25,668 bases of DNA from Clostridia bacterium (GCA_045604425.1 JAZUOB010000230.1:1-25668); one strand, 5' to 3'; positions 4,469 to 25,109 are shown, counted from the first letter of the stretch. Program-made: numbers and translations. Notes: generated from the letters alone by a model not told the origin.

Positions 4469-4590
4469 TAAAAAATAAAAATATTCAAAAAAATCTAACA
4501 ATTGTTTAATATTGGAATAAAAAGTCAACATTATTTGACAATATTGGCTATAAGCCTCCTTGTATTTTGACGGTTTTTCCACGAAGTTTG

Positions 4591-4599
4591 TGTTATACT
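4591..4599 (+). promoter_or_regulatory. Extended -10 promoter element (TGtTATACT) of the phage-like operon
   Basis: TG-n-TATACT about 40 bp upstream of the capsid ATG. TTGACG at 4567-4572 is 21 bp away, too far to be a canonical -35. Confidence 0.5.
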
Positions 4600-4602
4600 C
4601 TG

Positions 4603-4620
4603 TCTATAACCGGTTATAGA
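4603..4620. promoter_or_regulatory. Perfect 18-bp palindrome TCTATAACCGGTTATAGA, putative operator over the transcription start
   Basis: Self-reverse-complementary. Lies between the -10 element and the SD AAGGAG (4627-4632). Confidence 0.7.
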
Positions 4621-4639: not shown

Positions 4640-5848
4640 ATGACAGATACAGAAAAGCTTTTGAACCTGAACACTACAAAGTCAAACGGTACAGCTCCTC
4701 TTTTTCAGGATGTTCTGAACAGACACATCCTCAAGAAAGCGGAAATAAAGCTTGTTCACGACCAGTTTGGACAGAAGGTACAGGTGCCAAAGGGTAAAAC
4801 AAAAACTATTGCATGGGACAGACTTTCTCCACTTCCAAAGGCAACTAAGCCGCTTACTGAAGGTATAACACCAAAGGGCAGCACTATCAATATTACAAGA
4901 ATTACTGCCCAGCCTATTCAGTATGGCAACTATGTGAGCTACACTGACAGCTTTGATTTCTTTAAGCATGACCCGTCACCTGAAGTTCTTAAGATGAACG
5001 AGCTTTTGGGAAGAAACGCCGCTGAAACTCTTGATGATATTACAAAGGACGTGCTTTCAGCAGGTACAAACGTACTTTATGCAGGCGGTGTATCAAGCCG
5101 TGCTGAGCTTGAAGGCGGCCTTACCGTCACAGATATCAGAAAGGCTGTAAACCAGCTTAAGAGAAACAAGGCAGTGCCTTTTGACGATGGCTATTATGTG
5201 GCAATCGTTCATCCTGATGTGACTTTTGATATCCAGTCCGACGAAAACTGGAAAAAGCCTCATGAATACACAGATTCAAAGCACATCTACAAAGGTGAAA
5301 TCGGCGAGCTTTACGGAGTGAGATTTGTAGAAACCCCTGATGCAAAGGTATTTAGAGGCACAGACCTTGCAGAAAACAGAGCAGAGCTTACAGTCCAGAA
5401 AATCGATGCCGAAAATAACAAGATATTCATTATGGAGGACTTGTCTGAAACAGAAGCTCAGGCACTTGCAGGCAGAAGCATTATTGCTAACGGCTTTATC
5501 TATGTGGTGGAAAGCGCCCAAGCCGGAGAAAACGGTGAAGCCTGCGTTGTTGTAAACTCTCAGCCTGACTCTTCTATTGAGCTTGACACCGCTATCTACC
5601 CTGCAGACGGCGGCGGTAAAAACAACAGTCCTGTATACGGCAATCTCTTTATTGCCAAGGATGCATACGGCGTAACAAGTCCTAAAGGCAATATTGAAAA
5701 TATTACCAAGGCGCTAGGCTCTGCCGGAAGCTCTGACCCTCTCAACCAAAGAGGTACTATGTCATGGAAAGCATATCACATGGCAAAAATTCTTGAACCT
5801 CTTTATCTTTTGAGATACGAATCATTGTCAACCCTGACAAAGATGTAA
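4640..5848 (+). CDS. Major capsid protein, N4-gp56 family
   Basis: Motifs PLTEGITP, QYGNYVSYTD, DVLSAGTNVLYAG, YVAIVHPDVTFD, GEIGELYGVRFVE and DPLNQRGTMSWKA. SD AAGGAG. Confidence 0.9.
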   Translation: MTDTEKLLNLNTTKSNGTAPLFQDVLNRHILKKAEIKLVHDQFGQKVQVPKGKTKTIAWDRLSPLPKATKPLTEGITPKGSTINITRITAQPIQYGNYVSYTDSFDFFKHDPSPEVLKMNELLGRNAAETLDDITKDVLSAGTNVLYAGGVSSRAELEGGLTVTDIRKAVNQLKRNKAVPFDDGYYVAIVHPDVTFDIQSDENWKKPHEYTDSKHIYKGEIGELYGVRFVETPDAKVFRGTDLAENRAELTVQKIDAENNKIFIMEDLSETEAQALAGRSIIANGFIYVVESAQAGENGEACVVVNSQPDSSIELDTAIYPADGGGKNNSPVYGNLFIAKDAYGVTSPKGNIENITKALGSAGSSDPLNQRGTMSWKAYHMAKILEPLYLLRYESLSTLTKM

Positions 5849-5880
5849 TCTGCTTTTTTATCCTCACCGCAAGCAGATTA
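5846..5880 (+). other. Intergenic stem-loop between capsid and terminase genes
   Basis: TAATCTGCTT (5846-5855) and AAGCAGATTA (5871-5880) form a perfect 10-bp inverted repeat with a 15-nt loop. No U-tract follows the stem. Confidence 0.65.
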
Positions 5881-5898
5881 ACTACGGAGGAAACGCAA

Positions 5899-7290
5899 AT
5901 GAATGTTGTATGGAAACCACAGGAAAGACAAAGGGTATTTCAATCAAGGTCTGAGTATGAAGCGCTTTATGGCGGAGCTGCCGGTGGCGGCAAGTCCGAT
6001 GCTTTGGTGGCAGAGGCGCTCAGGCAAGTACACATTCCTCATTATAAGGGTATTATTTTCAGAAAGACTTTTCCTCAGCTGAGGGAGCTGATTTCAAAGT
6101 CTCGCCGTATATACTCTGCGGCATTTCCGGATGCGGTATACAATTCCACTGAGCATGTCTGGCGATTTCCCTCCGGCGCCCGAATATACTTCGGATCCAT
6201 GCCGAACAAGGACAGCTACCTGAACTATCAGGGGCTGTCCTTTGCTTTTATAGGCTTTGATGAGCTGACACATTTTACCCGAGAGGAATACGAATATCTT
6301 ATATCAAGAAACCGTGCTGACGGCGAGGGCGTAAGAGTGTATATAAGGGCTACAGCAAACCCCGGTGGTATAGGACACGGCTGGGTAAAGGAAAGATTTA
6401 TCACTGCCGCACCGCCTAATACCACAATAAGATTCAAAACAAATGTCAGAATGCCTGACGGCTCTATGAAAGAGGTGGAAAGAACAAGAGTTTTTATCCC
6501 CTCATCCGTATTTGACAATCAGGCACTACTGGACAACGACCCAAACTATCTTGCCAATCTGGCATCCTTGCCTGAGGCACAGAAAAATGCGCTTTTGTAC
6601 GGTGACTGGGACACTTTTTCAGGGCAGGTATTTACAGAATGGAAAAACCACCCTGAAAATGAGGACAGAAGAAATACCCATGTGATAAGACCTTTTATTA
6701 TACCAAGGCACTGGAAAAGATACAGAAGCTTTGACTACGGCTATACACGGCCTTTTGCAGTGCAGTGGTGGGCTGTTGACGAGCAAGGTATATGCTATCT
6801 GTACAGACAGCTTTACGGATGTACAGACCAACCAAATACCGGCGTTCGAATGGAGCCGTCAGCTATCGCCAGAATGATAAAGGAAATTGAGGATTCAGAG
6901 GAGGCAGGCAACAATATCATCGGTATTGCGGACCCTGCCATATGGGATGAAAGCCGAGGCAAAGCAGGAACTATTATAAATCTCTTTGAAAGAGAGGGTG
7001 TGTATTTTGAAAAAGGCGACCACAAAAGAATTCCCGGCAAAATGCAAGTACATCACAGGCTGGCTTTTGATAAAAACGGCTATCCCATGATGTATATATT
7101 TGATACCTGCCGTCATTTTATAAGGACCTTTCCAAACCTTGTATATGACCCTAAAAAACCGGAAGATATCGACACAGATTGTGAGGACCATGACTATGAT
7201 GCCATGCGGTATTTTCTGATGAGAAACCCCATTCCCTCACCAAGTGTACAAAAAAGCTGCGAGAACCAAATAAAAATCTATTACAAATAA
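5899..7290 (+). CDS. Terminase large subunit (Terminase_6-like)
   Basis: Walker A YGGAAGGGKS, Walker B FIGFDELTHF, RATANPGG, nuclease motifs SFDYG and EDHDYDAMRY. SD GGAGG. Confidence 0.95.
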   Translation: MNVVWKPQERQRVFQSRSEYEALYGGAAGGGKSDALVAEALRQVHIPHYKGIIFRKTFPQLRELISKSRRIYSAAFPDAVYNSTEHVWRFPSGARIYFGSMPNKDSYLNYQGLSFAFIGFDELTHFTREEYEYLISRNRADGEGVRVYIRATANPGGIGHGWVKERFITAAPPNTTIRFKTNVRMPDGSMKEVERTRVFIPSSVFDNQALLDNDPNYLANLASLPEAQKNALLYGDWDTFSGQVFTEWKNHPENEDRRNTHVIRPFIIPRHWKRYRSFDYGYTRPFAVQWWAVDEQGICYLYRQLYGCTDQPNTGVRMEPSAIARMIKEIEDSEEAGNNIIGIADPAIWDESRGKAGTIINLFEREGVYFEKGDHKRIPGKMQVHHRLAFDKNGYPMMYIFDTCRHFIRTFPNLVYDPKKPEDIDTDCEDHDYDAMRYFLMRNPIPSPSVQKSCENQIKIYYK

Positions 7291-7307
7291 GAAGGAGAAT
7301 AAAAATT

Positions 7308-7628
7308 ATGACAAGCACTACTACAAAAAAGACAACTGAAACAAAACCTAAAATGACAGTAAACGAAAGAAGAAAAATCAATAATGAAAACTACAGAAGC
7401 TACATGAACGAAAAGGTGTCTGTGACAATACCCCTTGGCGCTGAAAAGCTTGGCACTACCACAACCGCTTCTTGCGACGGTAAGGTGTATGAAATAAAGC
7501 TTGGGGAAACTGTAAAAGTGCCAAGAAAACTTGCAGAAGTGATAAAAAGAAGTATTGACGGCAACCTTGAGGTTCAGAAAAAAATGGAAAAGGCGGCACA
7601 GGGTGCAAAGGAAATCGGTGAATACTGA
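7308..7628 (+). CDS. Small phage protein, probably virion-associated
   Basis: 106 aa with SD AAGGAG. The motif DGKVYEIKLGETVKVPRKLAEVI resembles small proteins encoded beside N4-gp56-type capsids. Joined to the next gene by a TGATG overlap. Confidence 0.65.
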   Translation: MTSTTTKKTTETKPKMTVNERRKINNENYRSYMNEKVSVTIPLGAEKLGTTTTASCDGKVYEIKLGETVKVPRKLAEVIKRSIDGNLEVQKKMEKAAQGAKEIGEY

Positions 7629-9352
7629 TGATTTATAATAATATCTCACGCACTCAAGGCTCTGTGACATTTGATGTGTTTGGGGGAATAAACCGCCGGA
7701 TAAAAGCAGACAACGGGGAATTTCGGGATATGCAAAACCTTTGCCACAGCGAATATCCTTGTCTTCGGTCTCACAGACTGTACAAGGATATGGGCTTTTC
7801 TCTTCCTGATAATGTTGAAGTGGTGAAAATGATAATACCAAAACGCCTTTTGTCCGCTATGGAGGGATTTTCGGGTGTTGTATATAACAAAAGCACAAAG
7901 TACTATGAAATATATATAAACGGAGAAGCAAAACGCACGGATATCCCTGTCTTTACAGATGCTGTGGACTACAACGGCTCTATCATTACACTTCCCCAGC
8001 TTAAAGGCTATAATTACTGTACTTTGGGTGAGGCTATGGACTATGATGATTTGGCAATCGAGCCTTATCGCATTTCCAGTGTAGGCTTTAAGTTCTATAA
8101 TTCATATTCAACCTCAACACAGACTACCACTCCATACCTACATATAATGGGAATAAGTAGCTCCTGGTTCAAAAACAGATTTTTAAACAACTTCAAGATT
8201 GGAGATGCTGTGGCTTTTTATGGGTTTGAAGGTGAATTTGCAAAAAACAATACCTTCTATCCAAAAAGCTCAACCGATTATTCAAATACTATCTCGCCCA
8301 CCATTGCTACCATAAAAAGCTACACTTCCTCCGGCACCATGGCTGTGATTGGATTTGAGCTTCGAAACTCTCTTGGTGAGATTATAAACTGGCCATATGG
8401 CTGTGGCATCAACACTGAAACCCCAACTGACCAGACTACAGGTGTTTTTCAAAAATATGTACCCAAAGGCTCTAATATGTGCGTTGCTCACAACAGATTA
8501 TGGCTCTGTTCAGAGTCGGGAGAAGAAATCCTTGCATCAAGCCTTGGCAAGCCTATGGAGTTTTATGAGTTTCAAGGGGTGAGCACTGACAGTTGGTCAG
8601 GAAGCGTTGGAACGCCCGGTCTTTTTAAAGGAATAATCTCATGGCATACAAGAGTCCTTGCATTTAAAGAAGACACAATTCATGTAGTATATGGCGACCT
8701 GCCCTCTAATTTCAGTATTGAAAAGACATATAATTTCGGATGTGTGGACAAAAACAGTATAGCCGCCTGCGGAGACTGTGTAATATGGCTTTCTCATGAT
8801 GGGTTTTATGCATATTCAGGTACTCTTCCCAAAAAGATATCACACAAGCTCCAGACAGAGTATACCTCTGCCAATGCTTTTTCAGACGGAGTCAGGTACT
8901 ATGCCTATTGCACAAAAAAAGACGGCGGGAGCGAATTCATAGTCTATGACACCCAGCTGAAGCTGTTTTCAAAGCTTGAAGCTCCCTCTATTATAAACGG
9001 AGACTTTTATGAAGGTAAAGTGTACTTTGCAGACAAAAACAAAGTATATGCTCTTGGAGAAGGTGAGTTTGGTGATTTTTACGGCGAAACTCCGGAACTT
9101 TCTTTTGACAGCTTTGGTGACAAATCCATAATCTATGCTTGTATAAGATGCAAGATAAAAGACGGGTTTTTGAACTTTTATACTGCATCCGGCGGCGGTG
9201 AGTTTATATCCCACAAAGGTATCTCAAAGTCCGGAAAACACAGGCTTCCTATCCGATATTCTCCCGGGGATGTATTGTCTTTCAGGATTGAGGGTCATGG
9301 AGATGTATGTATCAGCGAGATAAAACTTGAAGTACTTTTGAAAACGAGGTGA
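7628..9352 (+). CDS. Podovirus tail nozzle or stabilisation protein (P22 gp10 / T7 gp12-like beta-propeller)
   Basis: FGGINRR...EFRDMQNL...YPCL, HNRLWLC, ILASSLGKP, DSWSGSVGT, VLAFKEDTIHVVYG, GCVDKNSIA and VIWLSHDGFYAYSG repeat-like blades. Confidence 0.7.
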   Translation: MIYNNISRTQGSVTFDVFGGINRRIKADNGEFRDMQNLCHSEYPCLRSHRLYKDMGFSLPDNVEVVKMIIPKRLLSAMEGFSGVVYNKSTKYYEIYINGEAKRTDIPVFTDAVDYNGSIITLPQLKGYNYCTLGEAMDYDDLAIEPYRISSVGFKFYNSYSTSTQTTTPYLHIMGISSSWFKNRFLNNFKIGDAVAFYGFEGEFAKNNTFYPKSSTDYSNTISPTIATIKSYTSSGTMAVIGFELRNSLGEIINWPYGCGINTETPTDQTTGVFQKYVPKGSNMCVAHNRLWLCSESGEEILASSLGKPMEFYEFQGVSTDSWSGSVGTPGLFKGIISWHTRVLAFKEDTIHVVYGDLPSNFSIEKTYNFGCVDKNSIAACGDCVIWLSHDGFYAYSGTLPKKISHKLQTEYTSANAFSDGVRYYAYCTKKDGGSEFIVYDTQLKLFSKLEAPSIINGDFYEGKVYFADKNKVYALGEGEFGDFYGETPELSFDSFGDKSIIYACIRCKIKDGFLNFYTASGGGEFISHKGISKSGKHRLPIRYSPGDVLSFRIEGHGDVCISEIKLEVLLKTR

Positions 9353-9357
9353 TAAAC

Positions 9358-9975
9358 ATGAGCTATGAAATAAATGTGGATAAATACAGCTTTGCTGCAA
9401 ATCCCGAAAAGGAGCAGGAAAGCTATAGTACACAGCTTATTCGCAAACTTTTTGAAGAGGAAACAAAAATACGGACTGAAGAAATTCTTGAGCTTAGAAA
9501 ACAGATTGATACTCTTTTGAAAGAAGAAACTGACCCCACTGTTTCCTCTTGGGCGAAAGAGCCGACCAAACCAACATATACTGCCCAGGAAGTTGGAGCA
9601 CTCTCTGAAAATACACCTATACCGATTGTAGACCAAACCTATAACGGCGAAAGCGAAAATGCTCAAAGCGGTAAAGCTTTAAAGCCTGAATTTGACAAAG
9701 TGTGGCCTGAATTTGACAAAGTGTGGACTGAACTGAATGATATGGGAATTGCACTTGAAAATAACATAAGTAACACACAGCATTTAGCTTCTGTAAAAGC
9801 AAATAAATCTGATGTCTTTACAAAAGCCGAGACGGAAGCCGAAATAAAAGGAAACTTGGGTATGTATTATACCAAAGACCTTATTGACACTATGTTTGAT
9901 AATATATACACAAAATCTGAAACGGATACGGCTATCAGGACAGCTATCCTTGACAGTTGGGAGGTACCTGTATGA
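9358..9975 (+). CDS. Tail-fibre-like or virion appendage protein; start revised to ATG 9358
   Basis: SD GAGGTGA at 9346-9352. Motifs ETDPTVSSWAKEPTKPTYTAQEVGAL and VDQTYNGESENAQSGKA recur in Firmicutes phage fibre proteins. C-terminal YTK-type repeats. Confidence 0.6.
   Translation: MSYEINVDKYSFAANPEKEQESYSTQLIRKLFEEETKIRTEEILELRKQIDTLLKEETDPTVSSWAKEPTKPTYTAQEVGALSENTPIPIVDQTYNGESENAQSGKALKPEFDKVWPEFDKVWTELNDMGIALENNISNTQHLASVKANKSDVFTKAETEAEIKGNLGMYYTKDLIDTMFDNIYTKSETDTAIRTAILDSWEVPV
9685..9726 (+). repeat. Exact 21-bp tandem duplication (PEFDKVW x2)
   Basis: CCTGAATTTGACAAAGTGTGG occurs at 9685-9705 and 9706-9726, followed by the partial copy ACTGAA. Confidence 0.95.
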
Positions 9976-10640
9976 GTGTTCAGCAAGAAAAGTTTACACA
10001 AATAGCAGATGCAATTCGTGAAAAAACAGGCTCCAAAGATAAAATAAAGCCATCACAGTTTGCATCAGAAATTGATAATGTATTTGATGCAGGCTCTGCT
10101 TCAAATAACAAAAATTTTTGGGACGTTCTTCAAAACAAGGGCGGCAGTGCAAACTATTATTATGCTTTTGCATACGGCAGATTTACCGACAAAAATTTCA
10201 ATCCCGTCCATGATATTGTATGCGCCTCAGGTTCCACCCCGGGACAGCATCTTTTCACAGCATCTCATGGTATTACCGATGTCAAGGTGCCTGTATACGC
10301 AAATACAAAGAATGCAAACAGTGCCTTTTATACCTGCCTGAATCTAAAGACCATACCCTTGTTTTATGTATATAAAACAACTACATTGACAACCTGTTTT
10401 TCTGATTGTCCCGCCCTTGAAAACTTGACTATGGGCGGAGAAATAGGTCAGAACATCAAGGTATCCGATTGTACAAAGCTTACTCATAAAAGCCTTATGA
10501 GTATAAGCCAGCACTTATATGACTATGCTTCCGCGGGAGAAAGCGGCACTTATACATTCACAATGGGAAGCGCAAACCAGAAAAAGCTTACAGAGGCAGA
10601 GCTTGCAGAAATAACACAGAAAGGATGGAGCGTAGCATAA
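9972..10640 (+). CDS. Putative receptor-binding or fibre protein with short LRR-like segment; start revised to ATG 9972
   Basis: ATGA overlap with the upstream stop and SD GGAGGT. N-terminal IADAIREKTG...IKPSQFASEI, LRR-like FYTCLNLKTI / FSDCPALENL, and C-terminal LTEAELAEITQKGWSV. Confidence 0.6.
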   Translation: MSVQQEKFTQIADAIREKTGSKDKIKPSQFASEIDNVFDAGSASNNKNFWDVLQNKGGSANYYYAFAYGRFTDKNFNPVHDIVCASGSTPGQHLFTASHGITDVKVPVYANTKNANSAFYTCLNLKTIPLFYVYKTTTLTTCFSDCPALENLTMGGEIGQNIKVSDCTKLTHKSLMSISQHLYDYASAGESGTYTFTMGSANQKKLTEAELAEITQKGWSVA

Positions 10641-10822
10641 TGGAAATATATACTATAGAAATAAAAAAGCTAAAAGCAGGCCAAGGCAAAGTCCTCACAG
10701 ACGGCAATACATTTTCGGATGTAGGCGGAGCTGTATACCTTGGCGTCAATGATACTGCTGACAGGTGGCAGGAAATATCCAAAGAAGAATACGATATCAT
10801 AAAGGAGACTGCAAATGAGTGA
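10640..10822 (+). CDS. Small phage protein, possible fibre-assembly chaperone; start revised to ATG 10640
   Basis: TAATG overlap. 60 aa with motif LKAGQGKVLTDG...VYLG..D...WQEISKEE, directly following the fibre gene. Confidence 0.55.
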   Translation: MEIYTIEIKKLKAGQGKVLTDGNTFSDVGGAVYLGVNDTADRWQEISKEEYDIIKETANE

Positions 10823-11369
10823 TGTTCTTACAACTTGCAGGGATATAAAAGAGCTTACCAAAAGTGCTCAAAAAGCCTGTAATTTGTTTTTAGCAGAGTG
10901 TAAAAAACAAGGACTTAATGTACTTATAACCGAGACATACAGAAGCCAGGAGAGGCAAAACTATCTGTATGCACAGGGGAGAACAAGACCAGGCAACAAA
11001 GTGACATGGACTAAAAACAGCCGTCATACATCAAGAAGAGCATGGGATATTTGCAAGAATGTAAAAGGCGGAGAATACTCTGACAGTTCATTCTTTAAAA
11101 AATGCGGAGAAATTGCAAAAAGTCTTGGTATTGTCTGGGGCGGAGTGTGGTCAACACCGGATACTCCTCACTTTGAGGTAAATGAAGATTGGAATTATAA
11201 AGGAGATGAATTGGATATGGACGAGCTTGAAAGATTTAAAAAGGAATACGCTGATTATGTAGCACATACAAGCGGCATAATAAACACTATGGGCAAGGAG
11301 ATTAAGAGCCTTCAGGATATTATAAATATTATGGGCAAGGAGCTTCAAGCACTTAGAGAGGAGAGATAA
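10815..11369 (+). CDS. Endolysin, M15-family L-Ala-D-Glu peptidase with C-terminal coiled-coil tail
   Basis: ITETYRSQERQNYLYAQGRT, NSRH, AWDI, WGGVW and DTPHFE provide the Zn-ligand pattern. Adjacent to the holin. Confidence 0.88.
   Translation: MSDVLTTCRDIKELTKSAQKACNLFLAECKKQGLNVLITETYRSQERQNYLYAQGRTRPGNKVTWTKNSRHTSRRAWDICKNVKGGEYSDSSFFKKCGEIAKSLGIVWGGVWSTPDTPHFEVNEDWNYKGDELDMDELERFKKEYADYVAHTSGIINTMGKEIKSLQDIINIMGKELQALREER
11277..11360 (+). repeat. Imperfect 42-bp tandem repeat encoding a double-heptad duplication
   Basis: IINTMGKEIKSLQD followed by IINIMGKELQALRE. ATGGGCAAGGAG is present in both copies. Confidence 0.85.
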
Positions 11370-11370
11370 T

Positions 11371-11802
11371 ATGAACGATATAAAGATATTTGTATGTACA
11401 TACATAGGAATTCTGGGAGCTTTGTTTTCCAAAATGTTTGGGGGATGGTCCGAAGACCTTCTTACACTTGTGATATTTATGGCTGTTGATTATATAACAG
11501 GTCTTATAGTAGCAGGCGTTTTCAAAGCATCAGGCAAAACAGAAAGCGGAAGCATCAGCAGTAAAGCCAGCTTTAAAGGAATATGCAAAAAGTGTGTAAT
11601 GCTTTTGTTTGTGCTTATTGCTATTCGCCTTGATATGCTTCTTTCAACAGATTATATACGCACTGCCACTGTAATAGGCTTTATACTCAATGAAGTAATC
11701 TCAATAGTAGAAAATGCAGGGCTTATGGGTATTCCGCTTCCAAAAGCGATAGTCAAAGCTATAGAAATCCTGAAAACAAAAGAAAAGACAGGTGACGAAT
11801 AA
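11371..11802 (+). CDS. Phage holin (Phage_holin_4_1 / toxin-secretion holin-like)
   Basis: FGGWSEDLLTLVIFMAVDYITG, SSKASFKGICKK and NEVISIVENAGLMGIPLP with transmembrane helices. Confidence 0.9.
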   Translation: MNDIKIFVCTYIGILGALFSKMFGGWSEDLLTLVIFMAVDYITGLIVAGVFKASGKTESGSISSKASFKGICKKCVMLLFVLIAIRLDMLLSTDYIRTATVIGFILNEVISIVENAGLMGIPLPKAIVKAIEILKTKEKTGDE

Positions 11803-12554
11803 TGTATATATCAGAGGTAATACAAAGAGCAAAGACCCTCTTTCCTACTGAGTATTCTCCGAAAGAGTATATCCTTTGGTGCGACGAGCTATCGGCGTAT
11901 ATACGAAAAAATCTTGACCCCTTGTACCAAAAAATCAAATGCTCAACGTCTTGTGTGCTTCTTCCTGAAGATATAACCATAAACGATATTGCAAAAATCA
12001 TTATGGGAGAAAGGGAGCTTAAGAAAACTGACTTTCGGGATTTTGGTATTGAGTACCAATATACTCCGGAGGGAATACGACTTGCAAAAAAAGATGAAAA
12101 AGCCTGTGACTTTGAAATTATTTATGCTCTTTCATATCGCCCAATTCGGTATATAGATGATACATATGACGCTGAGATTTCAAACAACCGTCTTGTAATA
12201 AAGGATATTCCGCTTCTTGAAAATGACACCATAAAGGTGACATCGGAAGATACCGCATCTATTGTGACAATCACAAAAAAAGACGGTGATACCTACTATG
12301 TGACAGGTGATATTCTCCCTACTTTTAAAGGTCAGGTGAAGATTTACAGATTTATAAAAGATAAAACTCTGCTTCCGGCACCATACGACAGTGCATATAT
12401 AGATTTTGTGAATGCAAAAGCGTCCTTGTACCAAGGTGACAAACATGCATACAATGCTTTTATGAGCCAGTACAACTCCAAAATTTCGGACTATAAATAC
12501 TGGCTAAACAGAAACAAGCCAAGGACAGAAGCAAGATTCAAGAACTGGTTTTAG
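11802..12554 (+). CDS. Putative head-to-tail adaptor (P22 gp4 / T7 gp11-like role)
   Basis: N-terminal ISEVIQRAKTLFP...ILWCDEL and C-terminal LLPAPYDSAYIDFVNAK...YNAFMSQYN...DYKYW patterns. TAATG overlap with the holin. Confidence 0.6.
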   Translation: MYISEVIQRAKTLFPTEYSPKEYILWCDELSAYIRKNLDPLYQKIKCSTSCVLLPEDITINDIAKIIMGERELKKTDFRDFGIEYQYTPEGIRLAKKDEKACDFEIIYALSYRPIRYIDDTYDAEISNNRLVIKDIPLLENDTIKVTSEDTASIVTITKKDGDTYYVTGDILPTFKGQVKIYRFIKDKTLLPAPYDSAYIDFVNAKASLYQGDKHAYNAFMSQYNSKISDYKYWLNRNKPRTEARFKNWF

Positions 12555-12570
12555 AAAGGAGATGATATGA

Positions 12571-12711
12571 TTGGATTTTATAATGGAGGCTCCTCCCGAG
12601 CTTAGCGGAAACACTGATGAAGACTTAAAGGCTCTTCGGGAATACCTACTGGAGCTATTAGACGAGCTTGAATATACATTTAAAAGGAGGCTTAGAGATG
12701 AATCAGAGTAA
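12571..12711 (+). CDS. Unannotated 46-aa acidic helical protein (TTG start)
   Basis: Own translation: MDFIMEAPPELSGNTDEDLKALREYLLELLDELEYTFKRRLRDESE. SD AAGGAG at 12556-12561. Fills the gap exactly and overlaps the portal start by 14 nt. Confidence 0.75.
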   Translation: MDFIMEAPPELSGNTDEDLKALREYLLELLDELEYTFKRRLRDESE

Positions 12712-14317
12712 TATTAGTCCTGAGTTTCTGGCAAAAGCGCTATCTCAATATGAAAAATACAAAAATGACAAGCAGGCACTCAACCAGAGAGTCAGGGAAA
12801 ACGATTATTGGTACAAGGCAAGATATGGGTCACTACTAAACCCTAAAAACAATGAAACACAGCCAGTGACCGCTTTTATATTCTCCGCTATTGAATATAA
12901 ATTTGCAGATGCGGTGGACAACTTCCCTATGCCTAACGTACTGGAAAGAGAGCCGTCGGATAAAAAGGTATCAGAGCTTTTGTCAAAGATAGTGCCGGTG
13001 CAGCTGGATATGGCAGACTTCAAAAAAACCTACAAGTCAAACTGGAGAAGAAAACTAAAGCATGGCACCAGTATATATGGGGTGTTTTATAAGGGGGGAG
13101 ATATAAAAATCTGTCCTTTGTCTATCCTGAATGTATACTGTGATATGCATGTAAATGATGTTCAGGACAGCCCATTTCTTTTTATAGTGAATGCGCTGGA
13201 CAACGAGCACCTGAAAATGCTCTATCCTATGCATCGTGACAAGTTTTCGGGAAACGCAATGATAGAGTCTTTTGACGGTGCTCATGAAATGGAGGACAAG
13301 ACAGAGATTATAGATTGCTACTACAAAAAATTCGGCAAGGTACATTGTATGAAGATTTGTCAGAATGAGGTAATTGCCGCAACTGAGAATGAGAACTTTC
13401 CAAACGGTATTTACAGCCACGGCAAGTACCCGGTTGTCTTTGACGTAATGTATCCTGAAGAAGACTCTCCCTTTGGTTTTGGCGTTATAGATATTGCAAA
13501 AAACCCCCAGACTTATATCGACAGACTAGACAGTGCAATTGTGAAAAACGCAGTACTATCAAGCAAAATTCGTTTTCTTATAAAAGACAGCGGCTCAGTC
13601 AACGAAGAAGAAGTTCTGGACTGCTCGAAAGATATAATACATGTGGCAGGAAGCATTGATAATGACTCTATCAGGGAGCTAAACACATCAAATATGCCTG
13701 CATATGTAATAGAGCACAGAGCCAAGAAGATTGAGGAGCTAAAAGAAATTATCGGAAACCGTGACTTTCAGCAAGGCGGCACCAACAGCGGCGTCACAGC
13801 GGCAAGTGCAATCACTGCTCTTCAGGAAACGGGAAACAAGCTTGCAAGGGCAGCAATTGATGACTCCTATGACAGCTACAAACAAGTAGTGATTATGACC
13901 ATTGAGCTGATGCGTGAGTTTTTTGACAAAAAAAAGATATTCAGAATTGCGGGTCAGGGTGAAGAAGCTGAATACGCTGAGTTTTCAAAGGACATGCTGT
14001 ACAAAATAATAGACAACAAAAAAGAGCCTGTGCTTTTTGATGTAAATATTGTACCTCAAAAGCAAAACCCGTTCCAGAGAGAAACAAACAATAATACTAT
14101 CATAGAGCTGTGGAAAGCAGGATTTTTTAAGCCTGATACAGCAAGAGAGGCTATTATTGCCATTGAAGCTATGAGCTTTGACGGCAAGGACAAGCTACTA
14201 AAAAAGCTAAAATCAAATCCTACACCCCCAAGCCAAAATTCTGACATGGTACCCGTTGAAAAATACTTGAAAATGCAAGGAGTACAAGGGTATCAGCCAC
14301 AAATAAAGCGTGTATAA
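12698..14317 (+). CDS. Portal protein (P22-like podovirus type); start revised to ATG 12698
   Basis: SD AAAGGAGG at 12683-12690. Motifs DAVDNFP, PNVLEREPSD, YPVVFDVMYPEEDSPFGFG, KNPQTYID, IGNRDFQQG, VTAASAITALQETG and FDGKD. Confidence 0.82.
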   Translation: MNQSNISPEFLAKALSQYEKYKNDKQALNQRVRENDYWYKARYGSLLNPKNNETQPVTAFIFSAIEYKFADAVDNFPMPNVLEREPSDKKVSELLSKIVPVQLDMADFKKTYKSNWRRKLKHGTSIYGVFYKGGDIKICPLSILNVYCDMHVNDVQDSPFLFIVNALDNEHLKMLYPMHRDKFSGNAMIESFDGAHEMEDKTEIIDCYYKKFGKVHCMKICQNEVIAATENENFPNGIYSHGKYPVVFDVMYPEEDSPFGFGVIDIAKNPQTYIDRLDSAIVKNAVLSSKIRFLIKDSGSVNEEEVLDCSKDIIHVAGSIDNDSIRELNTSNMPAYVIEHRAKKIEELKEIIGNRDFQQGGTNSGVTAASAITALQETGNKLARAAIDDSYDSYKQVVIMTIELMREFFDKKKIFRIAGQGEEAEYAEFSKDMLYKIIDNKKEPVLFDVNIVPQKQNPFQRETNNNTIIELWKAGFFKPDTAREAIIAIEAMSFDGKDKLLKKLKSNPTPPSQNSDMVPVEKYLKMQGVQGYQPQIKRV

Positions 14318-14332
14318 AAAGGAGGAATAAAC

Positions 14333-15484
14333 ATGGCATACAACACTGATGAAAACGAAAAAACAACTGATACAAATAAGTCACCAAAGGGAAACACTTT
14401 TGTCTCTGATAATCTTGGAGTGAGGGATGCTTTAAACACACTTGGATACAACAACAGCCTTATAGGCTACGACGGAGAGAATGTCACATACGGCGGAAAG
14501 TATCTTTTGAAGCCGGAGAGAAACGATGAGGGCACAACAAAAGCAAGTCCCCAGACCTTAATCGGCAGTATAAACAGCTATAACAAAAAAGAAGGCATTG
14601 ATGACTCTGTAGTAGATGTGACGGCTTATAGCGCCACAGCTACAAAACTTCCCTATGCTGTCACACACGACAAGGGAGTTGTATCTCTTGGGGGAATTCC
14701 AATACAGAATACCATGATTATTGACGGGGTTGCGTATGCACCAAGAAGCAGTATAGATGCTGCTATCGGTGAGTATTCAAAAAATATTGGACAATATACC
14801 GAGAAAACAAATGAATACCTAAAGGAAACAGAAACTCCAACAAATGATTATCTAACCAGAATATATAATTATGAGCCTTTTAGTTATAATCCGGATAATG
14901 ACGCTGCCTATCTTGCATACAAGGACCAGTACACAAAAAATGCCGCGCTTGCGGCAGAGGACGTATATGGGCTTGGAGCATCAAGAACAGGGGGTTATCA
15001 AAACAGTGCGGCGCTTATGGCATCTAATCAGGCATACTACGACCATATGAAAGAGCTGGCTGATAATATACCTGCTCTTTTGGATAATGCATACAAGCGG
15101 CACACCGGAGATTTTGATATGCTGCTTGACAGTCTAAAGCTGTATGGCACACCTTATGACAGACATAAGCTTTCATCGGATGCGCTTGTGCTTGACAGAG
15201 AAGATACTGAAAAGGCACTGGAAAAAGACTACAATAGAGATATAGACTCTCGCGATTTCAACTATTCCGGAATTCTTGACTGGCAGGATTATGAACAGAT
15301 GCTTTGGGACAGAGATATGGATTCCTGGGATATAAATATGGATATATGGGAGCGAGATAATATACTTACTCCTAAATCTTTACTTTTAAACTGGGAAGTA
15401 GAAAACATACCACTAAATACTAAGCTTCTGGAAGCGGAGATTGCAAACAAGCAGGCAGACACCGGCAAAAAGAACAGATCATAA
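14333..15484 (+). CDS. Putative internal virion / DNA-ejection protein
   Basis: SD AAAGGAGG. The helical Ala/Gly/Tyr-rich block FSYNPDNDAAYLAYKDQY...SRTGGYQNSAALMASNQAYYDHMKEL resembles proteins in Clostridia podoviral morphogenesis modules. The function is inferred. Confidence 0.5.
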   Translation: MAYNTDENEKTTDTNKSPKGNTFVSDNLGVRDALNTLGYNNSLIGYDGENVTYGGKYLLKPERNDEGTTKASPQTLIGSINSYNKKEGIDDSVVDVTAYSATATKLPYAVTHDKGVVSLGGIPIQNTMIIDGVAYAPRSSIDAAIGEYSKNIGQYTEKTNEYLKETETPTNDYLTRIYNYEPFSYNPDNDAAYLAYKDQYTKNAALAAEDVYGLGASRTGGYQNSAALMASNQAYYDHMKELADNIPALLDNAYKRHTGDFDMLLDSLKLYGTPYDRHKLSSDALVLDREDTEKALEKDYNRDIDSRDFNYSGILDWQDYEQMLWDRDMDSWDINMDIWERDNILTPKSLLLNWEVENIPLNTKLLEAEIANKQADTGKKNRS

Positions 15485-15521
15485 AAAAAAAGGACCGACT
15501 CAAATGAGTCGGCCTTTTTTT
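15484..15521. terminator. Bidirectional intrinsic terminator between the phage-like operon and the S-layer gene
   Basis: A-run, AGGACCGACTC, loop AAAT, GAGTCGGCC, then T7. Sits between convergent stop codons at 15484 and 15544. Confidence 0.9.
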
Positions 15522-15543: not shown

Positions 15544-18500
15544 TTAGTTCTTTGAGTTGAAGATAACGATATCTGTGATTTCGTCATCAAGAACCTTGAA
15601 GTATGCATAGTTTGCAAAATCAGCATTTTCGAATGTGTAAACAGCTGCTGCAACGTCTGAGCTGTTGTATACATCAATGTTGCTAACTGTAGGAGTTACA
15701 GCGATGCTGCCTGTTGAACCTACAGTGATTCTGTCTGAAAGTGTAAGGTCAGCTTCGTTCATGTCTACAACATATACCTTTACATCGTCAGCGAGGTCGA
15801 AGTCAACTGCTGCTGTCTCTAAAGCATACTTAGAAACATCATTGTCAGCTGTCTGTCCGCCAACATCAGTTGTCTTCTTTGTGAAGTATGTCATAGCGTT
15901 CTCTGTAACCTGAGGAACAAATGTTACATTTGAACCTCTCTTTTCAACGATAGCACCGAAACCAATTCTTGCATAACCGTTTGTATCACTTACCTTTGTT
16001 GTATCCCAAAGTGATGCACGGAAGAATGTGTCAGTTGTTAAACCGTCGAGCTTACTTGTACCATCACCAAAGTTTGTGAAGAGTGTATTACCTTCAGCGA
16101 ATGAAAGTACACCGTCTGCAAGGTCTGCGTTAGCTACTGTAAACTGATCTGTCAAAAGTGTTGTAGCAGCTGAATCGAGAGTTCCGTCTGAGTTGAAGCC
16201 GAGAGCTACAACAGCGCCTCTCTTATAGCCTGGGTTAGAAACCTGATCATCATCGTAGAAGTACTTAACGAGTTCGCCGTTGCTGTCTGCATCGTAAACT
16301 GAAAGTGTGTATCTAACTGATCCGTCTTCTTCGTATGTTTCTGAACCTACAGCGTCAACGATAGCAAAACGTGTGTTGAGGCTGATAGCTGAGTTACCAA
16401 CGAGTACAAGTACGAACTTGTAGTAGCCGTCGTCACCCTTGTCAGCAGCAACGATTGTGTACTGTTCGCCGTCAACGAATGTATCAAGTGAACCAGCAGC
16501 GATATCAGATGCTGAATACTGAGCTGTGTTGTTGATGTTTGAAGAACCTATGTCTGTAACGTCAACGATAGCTGTAGCTTCGTTCAATCTGTATGAACCA
16601 ACCTTGTTTGACTTAGCTGAGAATTCGCCTGCATCCTGTGTACCACCGATGAATTCGATGTTGTTGAGTTCACCCTTGCTGTTAACCTTGTATGTGATTA
16701 CACGGCTTGCAACAGGTGCGAGTGTTGTTGATGTAGCTGTGTTGATCTGTGTATTAGCTATGAAAGCTGAACCGCCTGTCAAGCCATATACAGTGTTGTA
16801 TACATCATGAGCTTCTGATGAAGTGTTGCCCTTGATAGATCCCAAAGCTTTGATTTCTACTGTTTCTCTTGTACCGTCAGCTTTGATAAGTCTTGCAACA
16901 TATGCATCACTTGTCTGGCTGTAAGATACTCTATCGATTACAGCGTAGTTCTTAGCTGTAGCCTGTTCGATATAATCGATAACTCTGCCTGCAGCGTCTA
17001 CATAAAGAGTATATTCATAACCAACTTCAAGTGGTGAAAGGAGCTGTTGAACTGTCAAGTCTGACGCAATTTTAGCAACGAGTTTATATTCTTCTCCGTT
17101 AACTGTGTAAGCTGTAACACCATCGTCGTCTCTTGAGCCTGTAACAGCACCTTCAACAACTGTGTCGCAGAGGTTAACGATAATAACGTCAGAATTTGTT
17201 GCTCTGTCGCTTGTATCATATGTTACGAGTGCGATATCGCCAACAGCGATGTCTTCAAAGTCGATTGCTTCACCATTCTTGTAGAATGAAACAACTTTAT
17301 CTTCATCTGTTGTGTCGATGATGATGTTTGCGCCTACAGCAGCAGTCTTAATTTGATCAACACCAGCAGTTCCTACAGCAAACTCACTTTCAAAATCTGA
17401 GAAGTAAATTCTCTGTGTATCGCCTGATACAAGTGTATCACTAACAATTGCCCACTTTGGAAGTGAGATCATGATAACATCATAAACGCCGTCAACGCTT
17501 GTGCTAGCAACGTCTGTTGAGTCGATAAGTGTAACTGTACCAACTTTGTTAACTGTGATGTAAGCTATGATCATGTTAGTTGTGATATCATTTGTAGCGT
17601 CTGATGCTTTACCATCAGCGATTTCGATACCGTTTACATACAACTTTGTCTTGTCAAGATCGATTTCATAACCGATTGTCTTTGAAGATGTAGCGCTCTT
17701 CTTGAAGTCAAGTTCTTTGCTAATTGCATCATATCCTACATAATCATCAGCAACAAGCTCTACAATGTCGTTCTTGCCGTAAGGAGCGATAGAAACGATT
17801 GTGTAGTCGCCTTCTTCGTCAACCTTGATAAGTGCTTCAGCATATGTGAAGAGAAGGTCATCAGCAGCTGTATCACCAACATAAGCTTCGATAGAAATCT
17901 TGTTGCTGTAGCCTGTGATTATACCATACTTCTTAGCGTCGATAAGGTATGTGCCTTCGAAGTTGTCTGAAAGCTCAACGTCGAAATCAACCATACCAGC
18001 TTTAGCTGAACCAGTAGCGAATGTACCTGTCACACGACCCTTAACTTTGTAAACGTCATGGTTCTCTGTGAGGAGAGTCTTGTATTCGCCCTTTGTGTTT
18101 GTACCATCCATAGCTTCTGTCTTAGCAACAGGTTCGCCTGTGATGTAGTTTGTTTCCCAACCTGTAACGAGTACAAGAGGAGTATCAACAGCATTGCTGA
18201 TGAGCTGTGCAACCTGTGCTCTTGTAACAGGTGTTTCAGCGCTCAAACCAGAAATACCAGCTGTGATGCCTGTTGAGTTACCAAGCTGGAGGTAACCGTT
18301 AGGATATCCGCCGTTGTACTCAGCAGCTGTTGTATAACCAAGAGCTGCAACGAGCATCTTAACGATCTGTGCATATGTAACGTTTGCATCCGGAGCAAAT
18401 GTGCCATCGCCCATACCGTTGATGAATGACTGAGCAACACCTACTGCGATGAAGCCTGATGCCCAGTGGCCAACAGGATCAACATCAGCAAATCCTGATC

Positions 18501-18774
18501 CGCCAACGCTGCTTTCAGCTGAAGCTGTGTAGCTTGGGCCCATAGCAGCAACAACCATCTTTGTTACTTCTGCTCTTGTGATTTCGTTGTCAGGCTTGAA
18601 AGTACCATCTTCATAACCATTAACGATTTCAAGAGCTACGAGTTCGTCAATTGCAGCCTTGTACTTAGATGATGCTTCAACGTCTGAAAAATCAGCAGCG
18701 AAAGCTGTGAAGCAGCTAAGTGACATAGCAAGTGCAGCAACTGATGAAATTACCTTTTTGAGATTAATGTTCAT
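15544..18774 (-). CDS. S-layer protein with N-terminal SLH domains
   Basis: Signal peptide ending AFA. SLH repeats FSDV...IVNGYEDGTFKPDNEITRAE and FADV...FINGMGDGTFAPDANVTYAQ. Acidic 1076-aa body. Visibly strong codon bias suggests high expression. Confidence 0.9.
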   Translation of the reverse strand: MNINLKKVISSVAALAMSLSCFTAFAADFSDVEASSKYKAAIDELVALEIVNGYEDGTFKPDNEITRAEVTKMVVAAMGPSYTASAESSVGGSGFADVDPVGHWASGFIAVGVAQSFINGMGDGTFAPDANVTYAQIVKMLVAALGYTTAAEYNGGYPNGYLQLGNSTGITAGISGLSAETPVTRAQVAQLISNAVDTPLVLVTGWETNYITGEPVAKTEAMDGTNTKGEYKTLLTENHDVYKVKGRVTGTFATGSAKAGMVDFDVELSDNFEGTYLIDAKKYGIITGYSNKISIEAYVGDTAADDLLFTYAEALIKVDEEGDYTIVSIAPYGKNDIVELVADDYVGYDAISKELDFKKSATSSKTIGYEIDLDKTKLYVNGIEIADGKASDATNDITTNMIIAYITVNKVGTVTLIDSTDVASTSVDGVYDVIMISLPKWAIVSDTLVSGDTQRIYFSDFESEFAVGTAGVDQIKTAAVGANIIIDTTDEDKVVSFYKNGEAIDFEDIAVGDIALVTYDTSDRATNSDVIIVNLCDTVVEGAVTGSRDDDGVTAYTVNGEEYKLVAKIASDLTVQQLLSPLEVGYEYTLYVDAAGRVIDYIEQATAKNYAVIDRVSYSQTSDAYVARLIKADGTRETVEIKALGSIKGNTSSEAHDVYNTVYGLTGGSAFIANTQINTATSTTLAPVASRVITYKVNSKGELNNIEFIGGTQDAGEFSAKSNKVGSYRLNEATAIVDVTDIGSSNINNTAQYSASDIAAGSLDTFVDGEQYTIVAADKGDDGYYKFVLVLVGNSAISLNTRFAIVDAVGSETYEEDGSVRYTLSVYDADSNGELVKYFYDDDQVSNPGYKRGAVVALGFNSDGTLDSAATTLLTDQFTVANADLADGVLSFAEGNTLFTNFGDGTSKLDGLTTDTFFRASLWDTTKVSDTNGYARIGFGAIVEKRGSNVTFVPQVTENAMTYFTKKTTDVGGQTADNDVSKYALETAAVDFDLADDVKVYVVDMNEADLTLSDRITVGSTGSIAVTPTVSNIDVYNSSDVAAAVYTFENADFANYAYFKVLDDEITDIVIFNSKN

Positions 18775-19425: not shown

Positions 19426-19698
19426 TTAAAACAAATCACTATGGGTTCCCGTTCTTGATAAATACAAAACCAGTTCATCTTCTATAACCTGATACACCAA
19501 CAGCCAATCCGGTGCAATATGACATTCTCTCAATCCTTTAAAATCCCCTGTCAGCTCATGGTCCTTGTATTTTAAGTCTAAAACAGCTCCGGATGCAAGT
19601 TTATTGACCACATCTTCAAGCAATTCAATCTCATACCCTCTTTTGATAGCCAATTTCAAGTCTTTTTTGAACCTATTGGATGAAACAATTTTAAGCAT
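19426..19698 (-). CDS. yafQ: Type II toxin, YafQ family mRNA interferase
   Basis: FKKDLK, YKDHELTGDFKGLRECHIAPDWLLVY and RTGTHSDLF. Overlaps the antitoxin by 8 nt. Confidence 0.93.
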   Translation of the reverse strand: MLKIVSSNRFKKDLKLAIKRGYEIELLEDVVNKLASGAVLDLKYKDHELTGDFKGLRECHIAPDWLLVYQVIEDELVLYLSRTGTHSDLF

Positions 19699-19972
19699 CT
19701 GCCTTTACCTCTTCCAACAACTCGGAAAAAGAAGAATATCTTTTATATCCGTTTGGATTTTTCTTAAACTCTTCCAATTCTTTTATAGCTTCTATTGTAT
19801 CGCTGCCCGGAACTTTTAAAGATATTTCAAAAGGTATTCTCTGTTCTCTGACAGCCTGTTTTGCAGATAAAGTAAAAAATGTTGTCATACCCATACCAAG
19901 ATTGGAAACCAACTCCTGAAGCTGAGCTTTTAATTCCTCATCCATACGCATTGTTACATTTGCAGCAGCCAT
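19691..19972 (-). CDS. dinJ: Type II antitoxin, RelB/DinJ family; start revised to ATG 19972
   Basis: SD AAAGGAGG at 19981-19988. RHH-like NVTMRMDEELKAQ...LGMGMTT and REQRIPFEI. Confidence 0.88.
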   Translation of the reverse strand: MAAANVTMRMDEELKAQLQELVSNLGMGMTTFFTLSAKQAVREQRIPFEISLKVPGSDTIEAIKELEEFKKNPNGYKRYSSFSELLEEVKADA

Positions 19973-19994
19973 ATTATACGCCTCCTTTAATAAT

Positions 19995-20023
19995 ATATTA
20001 TCACATCGCACTTACATTGTCAA
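19995..20023 (-). promoter_or_regulatory. Sigma-A promoter of dinJ-yafQ
   Basis: -35 TTGACA (20018-20023), 17-bp spacer, extended -10 TGA-TAATAT (19995-20000). Confidence 0.7.
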
Positions 20024-22621: not shown

Positions 22622-24294
<1,673 letters not shown>

Positions 24295-24305
24295 TTATTA
24301 CCTCC

Positions 24306-25109
24306 TTAGGCATCGCTGCCTGCTACTATTTCAGTAATTTCCTGAGTGATTGCTCCTTGTCTTGCACGATTGTACCTGATACTCAAATCATCCAGCATTG
24401 CCTGTGCATTCTTTCCTGCAGAGTCCATGGCAAAGCGGCGGGCTGCCACTTCTGATGCAAAACTTTCTCTTATACATGATACAATCACACTGGATACATA
24501 TTCTTCTATGACAGAGGAAAGCACAGTCTGCTCATCAGGCTCAAAAATCACACTGGATTTTCTGCGGTTTTTCTCTCTTTCTAAAGGAAGAATCCATTTT
24601 ATATCCGTCTGTTGCAACATTATGGACACAAATCTGGTGTACACAATGCCTACTTTATCAAAATCTCCTTGCAAAAATCCTGACAGCACTTCTTTTGCTA
24701 TTGAAAGACCCATACCTGAGGTAAAGCCTTCGGCTTCTATTCGCTCCTTCTGGAATTTGTCCGATGCACGCTTGCCTACAGCTATCACAGATACCGGAGT
24801 ATACTGCTTCAAAAATCTGAATACATTTGCGTTATATCCTCCCGCAAGGCCTCTGTCACCTGCAACTACTATAAGACAAAGCTTATCCGTATCCCTTTTT
24901 TGAAGATAAGGACTTTTATCGGCTTCAGGGCAGGCTATAAGGTCCTGAACGCTTTTATAAAAAGCATCGGTGTACTGTGCTGATTTTTGCATCATGTCTG
25001 TAGCTTTTCTGATTTTTGATGAAGCTACAAGACCCATGGCTTTTGTAAGATGCAAGGTAGAGTCCACGCTCCTGATACGATTTCTCAGCTTTTTTATATC
25101 TGCACCCAT
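24306..25109 (-). CDS. atpG: F1 ATP synthase gamma subunit
   Basis: LTKAMGLVASSK, DRGLAGGYN, ASEVAARRFAM and YNRARQGAITQEITEIV. Confidence 0.97.
   Translation of the reverse strand: MGADIKKLRNRIRSVDSTLHLTKAMGLVASSKIRKATDMMQKSAQYTDAFYKSVQDLIACPEADKSPYLQKRDTDKLCLIVVAGDRGLAGGYNANVFRFLKQYTPVSVIAVGKRASDKFQKERIEAEGFTSGMGLSIAKEVLSGFLQGDFDKVGIVYTRFVSIMLQQTDIKWILPLEREKNRRKSSVIFEPDEQTVLSSVIEEYVSSVIVSCIRESFASEVAARRFAMDSAGKNAQAMLDDLSIRYNRARQGAITQEITEIVAGSDA

Follow-up and report, generated by a model that had tools for sequence, protein, structure and literature searches.

A domesticated podovirus-derived operon of gut Clostridia, probably of the gene transfer agent type, with helper genes at unlinked loci

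Gene transfer agents (GTAs) and related viriforms are recognized by caudovirus genes resident in a host genome, co-evolution with that host, packaging of random host DNA, host control and delivery (Kogay et al. 2022, PMC9662315). The closest described system to the one analysed here is FpGTA of Faecalibacterium prausnitzii (Borodovich et al., preprint 2024, Nat Commun 2026, PMC12946183), in which a 10.5-kb operon encodes the small and large terminase subunits (TerS and TerL), portal, scaffold, a capsid protein of the N4-gp56 family, a Prp-like protein and the nozzle, and a second operon of 5.5 kb encodes fibres, holin and endolysin. Its particles measure 40 nm and contain about 9 kb of host DNA, and GTA-like packaging has also been reported in other gut Clostridia (PMC12946183). 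Here we analysed a 25,668-nucleotide stretch of DNA (the window), which is a whole 25.7-kb contig of the fragmented metagenome-assembled genome (MAG) G000 of a Clostridia bacterium (GCA_045604425.1, JAZUOB010000230.1:1-25668; 1.2 Mb in 271 contigs, 89% complete; G, C and L numbers are our handles for genomes, contigs and loci). We describe the gene content and intactness of an operon at positions 4640-15484, its co-divergence with the host under purifying selection, its dispersed architecture and the promoter box that its parts share. We assign a probability of about 0.72 to the reading that this is the main operon of a domesticated particle derived from a short-tailed phage, that is, a GTA-like viriform of the FpGTA type. 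An initial annotation of the window suggested, subject to a search, that no podovirus-type GTA had been characterized in Clostridia; this statement is outdated, as FpGTA has the same capsid family and the same list of parts. What is new here is that the operon is not self-contained, its helper genes standing at unlinked host loci with the operon's own promoter box.

Like FpGTA, the element is a podovirus-derived chromosomal element of gut Clostridia with the same structural and lysis parts and no replication or integration genes; both elements are also dispersed beyond a single locus and present in almost every member of their respective genera. Its capsid belongs to the N4-gp56 family, whose name the FpGTA capsid (RCH50849.1) carries, and as in the compact, roughly 10-kb FpGTA type, its 10.9-kb operon combines TerL, portal, capsid, a probable nozzle and short-tail parts, with further genes located elsewhere. 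The two elements differ in arrangement. The gene order in the window is scrambled relative to FpGTA, with the capsid gene first and the portal gene near the end; the fibre and lysis genes lie inside the main operon and not in a second one; the dispersed genes are those for TerS and a scaffold-like protein; and a genus-specific promoter box and palindrome, defined here, accompany the window element. The size, DNA content and proteome of the particle have been established for FpGTA; the window element is described here from its genes. A further cluster, from Ca. Limivicinus (L269), has canonical gene order and matches FpGTA in its list of parts; it comprises TerL, P22 portal, Prp, scaffold, capsid, nozzle and BppU fibre genes, and its products are 27-42% identical to the window proteins.

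RcGTA of Rhodobacter capsulatus packages random 4-kb pieces of DNA, and their transfer has been demonstrated, and PBSX of Bacillus subtilis packages about 13 kb of random chromosomal DNA, its late genes being driven by a dedicated sigma-like factor. With RcGTA and its alphaproteobacterial kin, the window element appears to share domestication, vertical inheritance, purifying selection, a retained TerS, a probable release by lysis and a head-tail cluster with extra unlinked loci that would be co-regulated in trans; RcGTA, however, is siphovirus-like, has a capsid of an unrelated lineage and is controlled by CtrA and GafA. With PBSX it would share a phage-derived particle retained by a Gram-positive host and released by lysis, but PBSX is myovirus-like, is encoded by a single unbroken prophage-like block that includes a repressor gene, and kills without injecting DNA. 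No active phage nearly identical to the element was found: the nearest cultured phages by capsid are the Pagevirus podophages of Bacillus megaterium (Page, Pony and Pookie; about 40 kb), at 36-37% identity, and many related gut podovirus contigs in IMG/VR are about 42 kb long. These phages have a TerS-TerL-portal-scaffold-capsid head module of the same type, but they are complete, with replication, recombination and regulation genes, and their structural module occupies about 25 kb as against 10.9 kb here.

Genes were assigned by Pfam, PHROG and NCBIfam profile scans of all open reading frames (ORFs) and flanks. The operon comprises 12 ORFs of 65-574 aa, all on the + strand and in the same direction; a 13th, of 46 aa (12571-12711, +), lies ahead of the portal gene, and small ORFs are called at the equivalent place in two sister species (61 aa in G001, 46 aa in G005). 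The first gene (4640-5848, +) encodes the 402-aa major capsid protein, which matches the N4-gp56 family model TIGR04387 with 245.7 bits against a cut-off of 60 (E 7e-73) and phrog_1357 (E 4e-71). It is followed by the gene for the 463-aa TerL (5899-7290, +; Terminase_6N, E 3e-15; phrog_979), in whose translation the Walker A (GGAAGGGKS) and Walker B (FIGFDE) motifs and the nuclease Asp can be read. The P22-like portal protein (549 aa, start codon uncertain; 12668-14317, +) matches P22_portal (E 5e-20) and phrog_156 (E 1e-60) and is 72% identical to its counterparts in G001 and G005. Lysis genes encode an endolysin of the M15 peptidase type (10815-11369, +; Peptidase_M15_4, E 7e-11; phrog_6523) and a holin (11371-11802, +; Phage_holin_4_1, E 2.5e-35). 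A promoter with an extended -10 (4567-4599) precedes the cluster and a bidirectional intrinsic terminator (15493-15514), common to the operon and a convergent SLH gene, closes it. The scans of cluster and flanks returned no integrase, repressor, replication or recombination families, flanks scanned for up to 10 kb in three species likewise lacked integrase, replication and repressor genes, and no att-like direct repeats were found around the cluster; phage structural genes are thus present without replication, integration or excision genes of their own. In these respects the initial annotation was accurate: it had described an intact, co-oriented cluster of 13 head, tail and lysis ORFs with unbroken TerL ATPase and nuclease motifs, free of genes for mobility or propagation and of att repeats, and bounded by a promoter and a terminator.

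The conservation of the operon within its genus argues for long residence in the host chromosome. Its capsid protein is 82-90% identical in eight of ten species of the genus, one of these being represented by a contig-end fragment at 83%, and 41-59% identical in other genera of the family (the MAGs assigned to the genus range from 1.0 to 4.1 Mb, one with 6% contamination). The left flank, consisting of RNase H, a 212-aa protein (h212) and NlpC/P60 genes, is identical in order in five species (G000, G001, G005, G009 and G003). On the right, the SLH gene is common to G000 and G001, an IS200-type insertion preceding it in the latter. Farther out, G001 and G005 have housekeeping genes on either side, among them those for alanine racemase, YjeF, ClpXP, trigger factor and SHMT. 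The number of synonymous substitutions per site (dS) is at or near saturation (at least 1.3) for genes of the cluster as well as for those of the flanks, and the non-synonymous value (dN) is 0.08 for the capsid gene and 0.07-0.09 for the TerL gene (dS 1.4-2.2), giving dN/dS of about 0.05 for both, far below 1. Saturated dS together with low dN points to an old divergence under strong purifying selection and not to recent spread. In the seven species having both, the maximum-likelihood tree of capsid plus TerL and the RpoB tree agree exactly in their unrooted topology (one of 945 possible), and pairwise identities in the RpoB and capsid plus TerL data sets run parallel (94/91, 96/95, 84/86 and 84/82). 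Orthologues of the operon genes are intact in several species. It is therefore strongly supported by these comparisons that the operon is domesticated and inherited vertically with the host chromosome, evolving with its host, and the host-retained short-tailed particle system that the initial annotation had proposed is favoured by conservation of the locus, phylogeny and selection. In another genus, G032 carries two divergent copies of the cluster (L025 and L026), with capsids 49% and 46% identical to that of the window and gene orders that differ.

The operon itself contains no small terminase or scaffold gene, and the expectation that it would form a complete, self-contained unit was not borne out. 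Two relatives guided the search for these helpers. L207 is a compact 9.9-kb cluster among host genes on a 325-kb contig, with a capsid 58% identical to that of the window; L206 (JAZMII010000010.1, 339654-360847) is prophage-like, with HTH_3, ParB_N, REP_ORF2-G2P and GP3_package TerS genes followed by the same structural genes, and its capsid is 56% identical. L206 plausibly shows what the free ancestor was like, perhaps a small podovirus of a rolling-circle or plasmid-like type. The candidate TerS of L207, used as a query, found nothing in the genus. The Pfam GP3_package model picked up, below its cut-off, an ORF on contig C77 of G000, which aligns over its full length with L206 TerS (32% identity, E 2e-18) and is, on this homology, a P22-gp3-type small terminase. 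TerS is present in all ten genomes of the genus, every time on another contig than the operon, flanked on one side by phosphotransferase system (PTS), ApbE and phosphatase genes and on the other by the gene for a 981-aa SLH protein, and evolves with a dN/dS of about 0.15. As G000 is highly fragmented, it is the larger contigs of sister species that show the helper genes to be unlinked.

The second helper is a solitary ORF on contig C56 of G000, which matches proteins encoded between the TerL and capsid genes in L207 and L206. In six genomes a homologue of this scaffold-like gene immediately precedes the capsid gene, and in seven (G000, G001, G002, G003, G005, G008 and G009) the homologue is unlinked, on another contig; in G005, contig geometry separates it from the operon by at least 38 kb. 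Apart from one 72%-complete MAG, all genomes in which a homologue was found also have the capsid. The protein is fast-evolving, with invariant EFDxYI motifs at both ends. Complex prediction placed its C-terminal EFDEYI motif on the N-arm of the capsid protein with a score of 0.35, compared with 0.00 for the best of three controls, a mark that 51 of 78 solved pairs and 2 of 108 mismatches attained. As most passes at 0.60 or lower prove wrong when the pairing was not already likely, we take the prediction as weak support for an interface between the two. In G005 the nozzle gene is also missing from the operon and is found on another contig, behind its own box and a near-copy of the palindrome. 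With TerS, the scaffold-like gene and, in G005, the nozzle gene at separate loci, the gene set is not transmissible as a unit, and the distance of at least 38 kb in G005 implies that one headful could not carry all of it.

This dispersal bears directly on the idea that the locus is part of a still mobile element, either a temperate podovirus of small size or a satellite that forms its own capsid, with one integration site common to the different species. We regard this as quite unlikely. The existence of a prophage-like relative (L206), the exchange of fibre and lysin modules between species and strains, and a somewhat atypical codon usage would all fit such an element; yet the scans described above found no integrase, replication gene or att repeat, and an element whose TerS and scaffold-like genes lie at separate loci cannot move as a unit. 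A whole-genome tblastn search with all L206 early genes against G000 recovered no REP homologue, the ParB_N-domain match (E 6e-18) and weak HTH matches that it did recover being judged generic host domains, and both the congruence with RpoB and the saturated dS speak against repeated integration. Two specific forms were rejected: an intact temperate prophage, as no integrase, lysogeny switch, replication module or att sites accompany the structural genes, and a capsid-forming satellite of the cf-PICI type, as integrase and replication genes are lacking and adaptor, nozzle and fibre genes are present.

The dispersed genes are tied to the operon by a 16-nt promoter box, TTGACGGTTTTTCCAC, which lies ahead of the capsid gene (4567-4582, +) and also ahead of the unlinked TerS, scaffold-like and DUF6973 loci. 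Downstream of it lie, at a distance of 11 nt, an extended -10 (TGnTATACT; 4591-4599, +), conserved in five species, and a perfect 12-bp palindrome, ATAACCGGTTAT (4606-4617, +), which spans the likely transcription start and is unique in the genome. Although dS is saturated, five species have kept the non-coding DNA ahead of the capsid gene alike: the box is retained in G001, G005, G009 and G003, and the palindrome is near-unchanged in G001, G005 and G009 and altered on both arms, still palindromic, in G003. Its position over the start site suggests that the palindrome is a repressor target and candidate operator. The box core occurs four times in the G000 assembly, and a search with a degenerate box returned exactly three sites with zero mismatches (operon, TerS and scaffold-like gene) and a fourth with one mismatch. 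G001, G005 and G009 each have the box ahead of all three loci and at two to four sites more, in G003 one variant of the box is common to the operon and scaffold loci, and across five sister genomes the box pattern gave 22 matches as against 0 for a reversed-pattern control. Box-like sites inside coding sequence and without a -10 (G005:C19, G009:C29, G009:C57, G008:C7 and three in G003) were set aside as chance. The box is absent from L206 and L207.

The spacing within this promoter is unusual. The TTGACG of the box stands 21 nt from the -10, too distant to act as a normal -35, and we infer from this a dedicated activator or an alternative sigma factor. Such a trans-acting factor would switch on the box-bearing loci together. 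A search for such a regulator among genus genomes, by way of a 138-aa ORF upstream of the L206 TerS gene considered as a late activator, found none, that ORF having no homologue in five genomes of the genus. The conservation of these control sequences also makes it very improbable that the operon is an inert prophage remnant that has yet to decay. In favour of a remnant, the operon is phage-derived, lacks genes for autonomous propagation and is missing from one species of the genus; but all 13 ORFs are intact in several species despite saturated synonymous sites, dN/dS is low (capsid and TerL, about 0.05; TerS, about 0.15), and the promoter with its palindrome and box is preserved as non-coding sequence and has been copied to dispersed loci.

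Beyond the particle genes, the box leads to loci of a different kind. The fourth site in G000 (C148:12165; L254:3874-5125, - strand) and its counterparts in G001 (C8) and G009 (C41) precede a gene for a 67-79-aa protein and then one for a 304-363-aa DUF6973 protein, and the small partner protein ends in a scaffold-like EFDxYI motif in G001 and G009. A box-driven pair in G001 (C40:20298; L242:4104-4954, - strand), 17 kb upstream of the operon of that genome, encodes a 169-aa protein that joins the final 40 residues of a Mu F domain to a barnase-type RNase, and then barstar. In G005 the box drives genes for a DUF4417 protein and a barstar-like protein. Another box-driven protein, of 478 aa, also ends in an EFDxYI motif.

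These toxin-immunity loci raise the question of whether the particle is a killer or toxin-delivery device, one whose capsid carries and injects protein toxins or that kills as PBSX does, the packaged DNA being incidental. Under this proposal, capsid-targeting motifs (an EFDxYI tail or a Mu F stub) would load toxins into the head, and the particle would act as an injector through which related gut Clostridia pass polymorphic toxins to one another, whether or not genes move as well. The recurrence of the EFDxYI motif of the scaffold C-terminus in the small partner proteins and in the 478-aa protein fits this picture, as does the proposal that MuF-fused polymorphic toxins of temperate phages travel in capsids (Jamet et al. 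2017, PMC5576092). The G001 pair resembles those toxins in its Mu F C-terminal motif, barnase and barstar, placed under the particle box, but differs from them in keeping only about 40 Mu F residues and in lying outside the morphogenesis operon. The authors of the FpGTA study likewise leave a PBSX-like tailocin role open (PMC12946183). Against this, strong purifying selection acts on TerL, TerS and portal, which argues that DNA packaging itself is maintained; the cassettes vary between species and their packaging is hypothetical, and DUF6973 is without known activity. We consider both the toxin-delivery particle and its proposed loading mechanism rather unlikely, though a serious alternative, while noting that toxin delivery and gene transfer are not mutually exclusive.

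A GTA-like viriform of the FpGTA type remains our favoured reading, and several observations have to be weighed against it. The presence of toxin-immunity cassettes in the regulon hints at a function beyond, or other than, gene transfer. Related free phages are about 40-42 kb, and a capsid of that size could hold the whole 11-kb operon, contrary to a strict GTA criterion. The operon contains no Peptidase_Prp, and tblastn with the Prp of L269 against the 89%-complete G000 assembly was empty. Homology to FpGTA is inferred through capsid family membership and L269-type intermediates, and not from direct alignment; among the 120 best capsid homologues there is no Faecalibacterium entry. The 99%-complete genome G010 is without a capsid gene, and no scaffold-like gene was found in it; since G010 is nested within the genus, the absence of the capsid gene reads as loss. 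Gene order and location differ in G004, G006, G007 and G008. Lastly, codon usage, which the initial annotation had suggested comparing with host genes, places the operon in the tail of the host gene sets, at a distance of 0.54 compared with 0.31 +/- 0.07 and with 1.8% of random sets as far, and GC content at third codon positions is 0.40 in the operon and 0.34 in the host.

We propose the following working for the GTA-like particle. A subpopulation of cells would express the regulon via the shared box, procapsids would assemble on the scaffold-like protein, and headful packaging would fill them with whatever DNA is present. As the cell would contain no replicating phage genome, the packaged DNA should be the chromosome. 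Cells would then lyse through holin and endolysin, and the released particles would attach via their fast-evolving fibres and inject DNA into related cells. Judged from sequence, packaging and transfer of host DNA by this element are likely.

The remaining genes of the operon supply neck, tail and internal parts, which the initial annotation had listed as adaptor, nozzle, fibres and ejection protein. The adaptor is borne out at the level of fold. The 250-aa protein (11802-12554, +; Atlas SU10_adaptor) has an AlphaFold model of pLDDT 89.9, which Foldseek matched with probability 1.0 to the adaptors of SU10, Pa223, KHP30 (TMt 0.65) and GP4 and with 0.96-0.99 to that of crAss001, the N4 and T7 adaptors scoring lower; this predicted fold confirms a podovirus-type head-to-tail adaptor. 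The 574-aa protein (7628-9352, +) is probably the tail nozzle or hub, an assignment we treat as a lead: phrog_511 matches its C-terminal half, its Atlas neighbours include the P22 gp10 Phage_stabilise family, and it has a weak profile match to 8jov_A, a chain of 577 aa of which PDB entry 8jov contains six copies. PDB profile searches with the 383-, 574- and 250-aa proteins gave no significant sequence matches. Between TerL and nozzle genes lies that of a 106-aa head or neck accessory candidate (7308-7628, +; phrog_15239), whose homologues are encoded directly 3' of the capsid gene in L206 and L207.

Fibres are suggested by variation. The match of the 208-aa protein (9349-9975, +) to its sister-species counterpart is confined to the first 40-100 residues; the 227-aa gene (9957-10640, +), whose product is 33% identical to a 229-aa L206 protein and weakly matches BspA-type leucine-rich repeats, is replaced by unrelated ORFs in G001 and G005; and one fibre gene varies between strains with an identical capsid protein. 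From their conserved N-termini, variable C-termini and strain-level swaps, we read the 208-aa product as a probable fibre or fibre anchor and the 227-aa product as a probable receptor-binding or fibre protein. The 208-aa gene contains a perfect 21-bp tandem duplication of seven codons (9684-9725). A 65-aa protein (10625-10822, +) is 47% identical to a 72-aa L206 ORF in the equivalent relative position. In G001 the M15 catalytic domain of the endolysin is swapped for Amidase_2 (L014:12532-13167), the last 53 aa being retained; in the window, the C-terminal tail (11277-11345) has a duplicated 27-nt unit at a spacing of 42 nt.

The last gene of the operon encodes a 383-aa candidate internal or ejection protein (14333-15484, +). 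Its model (pLDDT 87) shows a pair of small beta domains at the N-terminus and, after them, very long helices; it has no Foldseek match in the PDB. It has 6569 representative homologues and matches only uncharacterized proteins of gut podovirus (Podoviridae) contigs (E 1e-6), and its gene comes after the nozzle gene in relatives with canonical order. An ejection protein would be our guess, and this part of the initial annotation is unproven. Operon content varies among sister species: in G005, whose nozzle gene is elsewhere, an extra 655-aa ORF without family match follows the 383-aa gene (L205:11251-13218, + strand).

The genes that flank the operon in the window are host genes: RNase H, NlpC/P60, SLH protein, RelE and its antitoxin, pyruvate kinase and ATP synthase. 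The SLH proteins encoded beside the operon (window 15544-18774, - strand; 1076 aa) and beside TerS (L226:3033-5978; 981 aa) are paralogues (26% identity over 628 aa, E 2e-38), and SLH homologues also occur near capsid genes in the distant loci L186, L195 and L199; these adjoining proteins may be receptors, be co-regulated or reflect mere conserved synteny. A RelE-like toxin (phrog_7251) and antitoxin pair (19426-20011, - strand) stands between the SLH and pyruvate kinase genes and is absent at that position in G001, where PfkB and rubrerythrin genes stand. Of five sister genomes searched, only one contains a close homologue (90%) of the F-type ATP synthase beta subunit (22891-25109, - strand), the others giving matches of 25-34%, a pattern that may reflect accessory content or differences in binning.

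The locus is thus a well-supported member of an FpGTA-like class of domesticated podovirus particles, and not an unprecedented one. GTA-like particles have only recently been shown to move much chromosomal DNA in the human gut, and their genetics are known for one genus; the element described here adds an independent, deeply diverged lineage in uncultured gut Clostridia, represented by human-gut MAGs, some of them Hadza and Nepali. Its operon co-diverges with RpoB at about the same rate, a clear evolutionary signature. The genus-specific promoter box marks every dispersed component and so offers a route, from sequence alone, to listing the whole gene set. The same box points to toxin-immunity cassettes as possible cargo, which bears on whether such particles serve gene exchange, antagonism or both.

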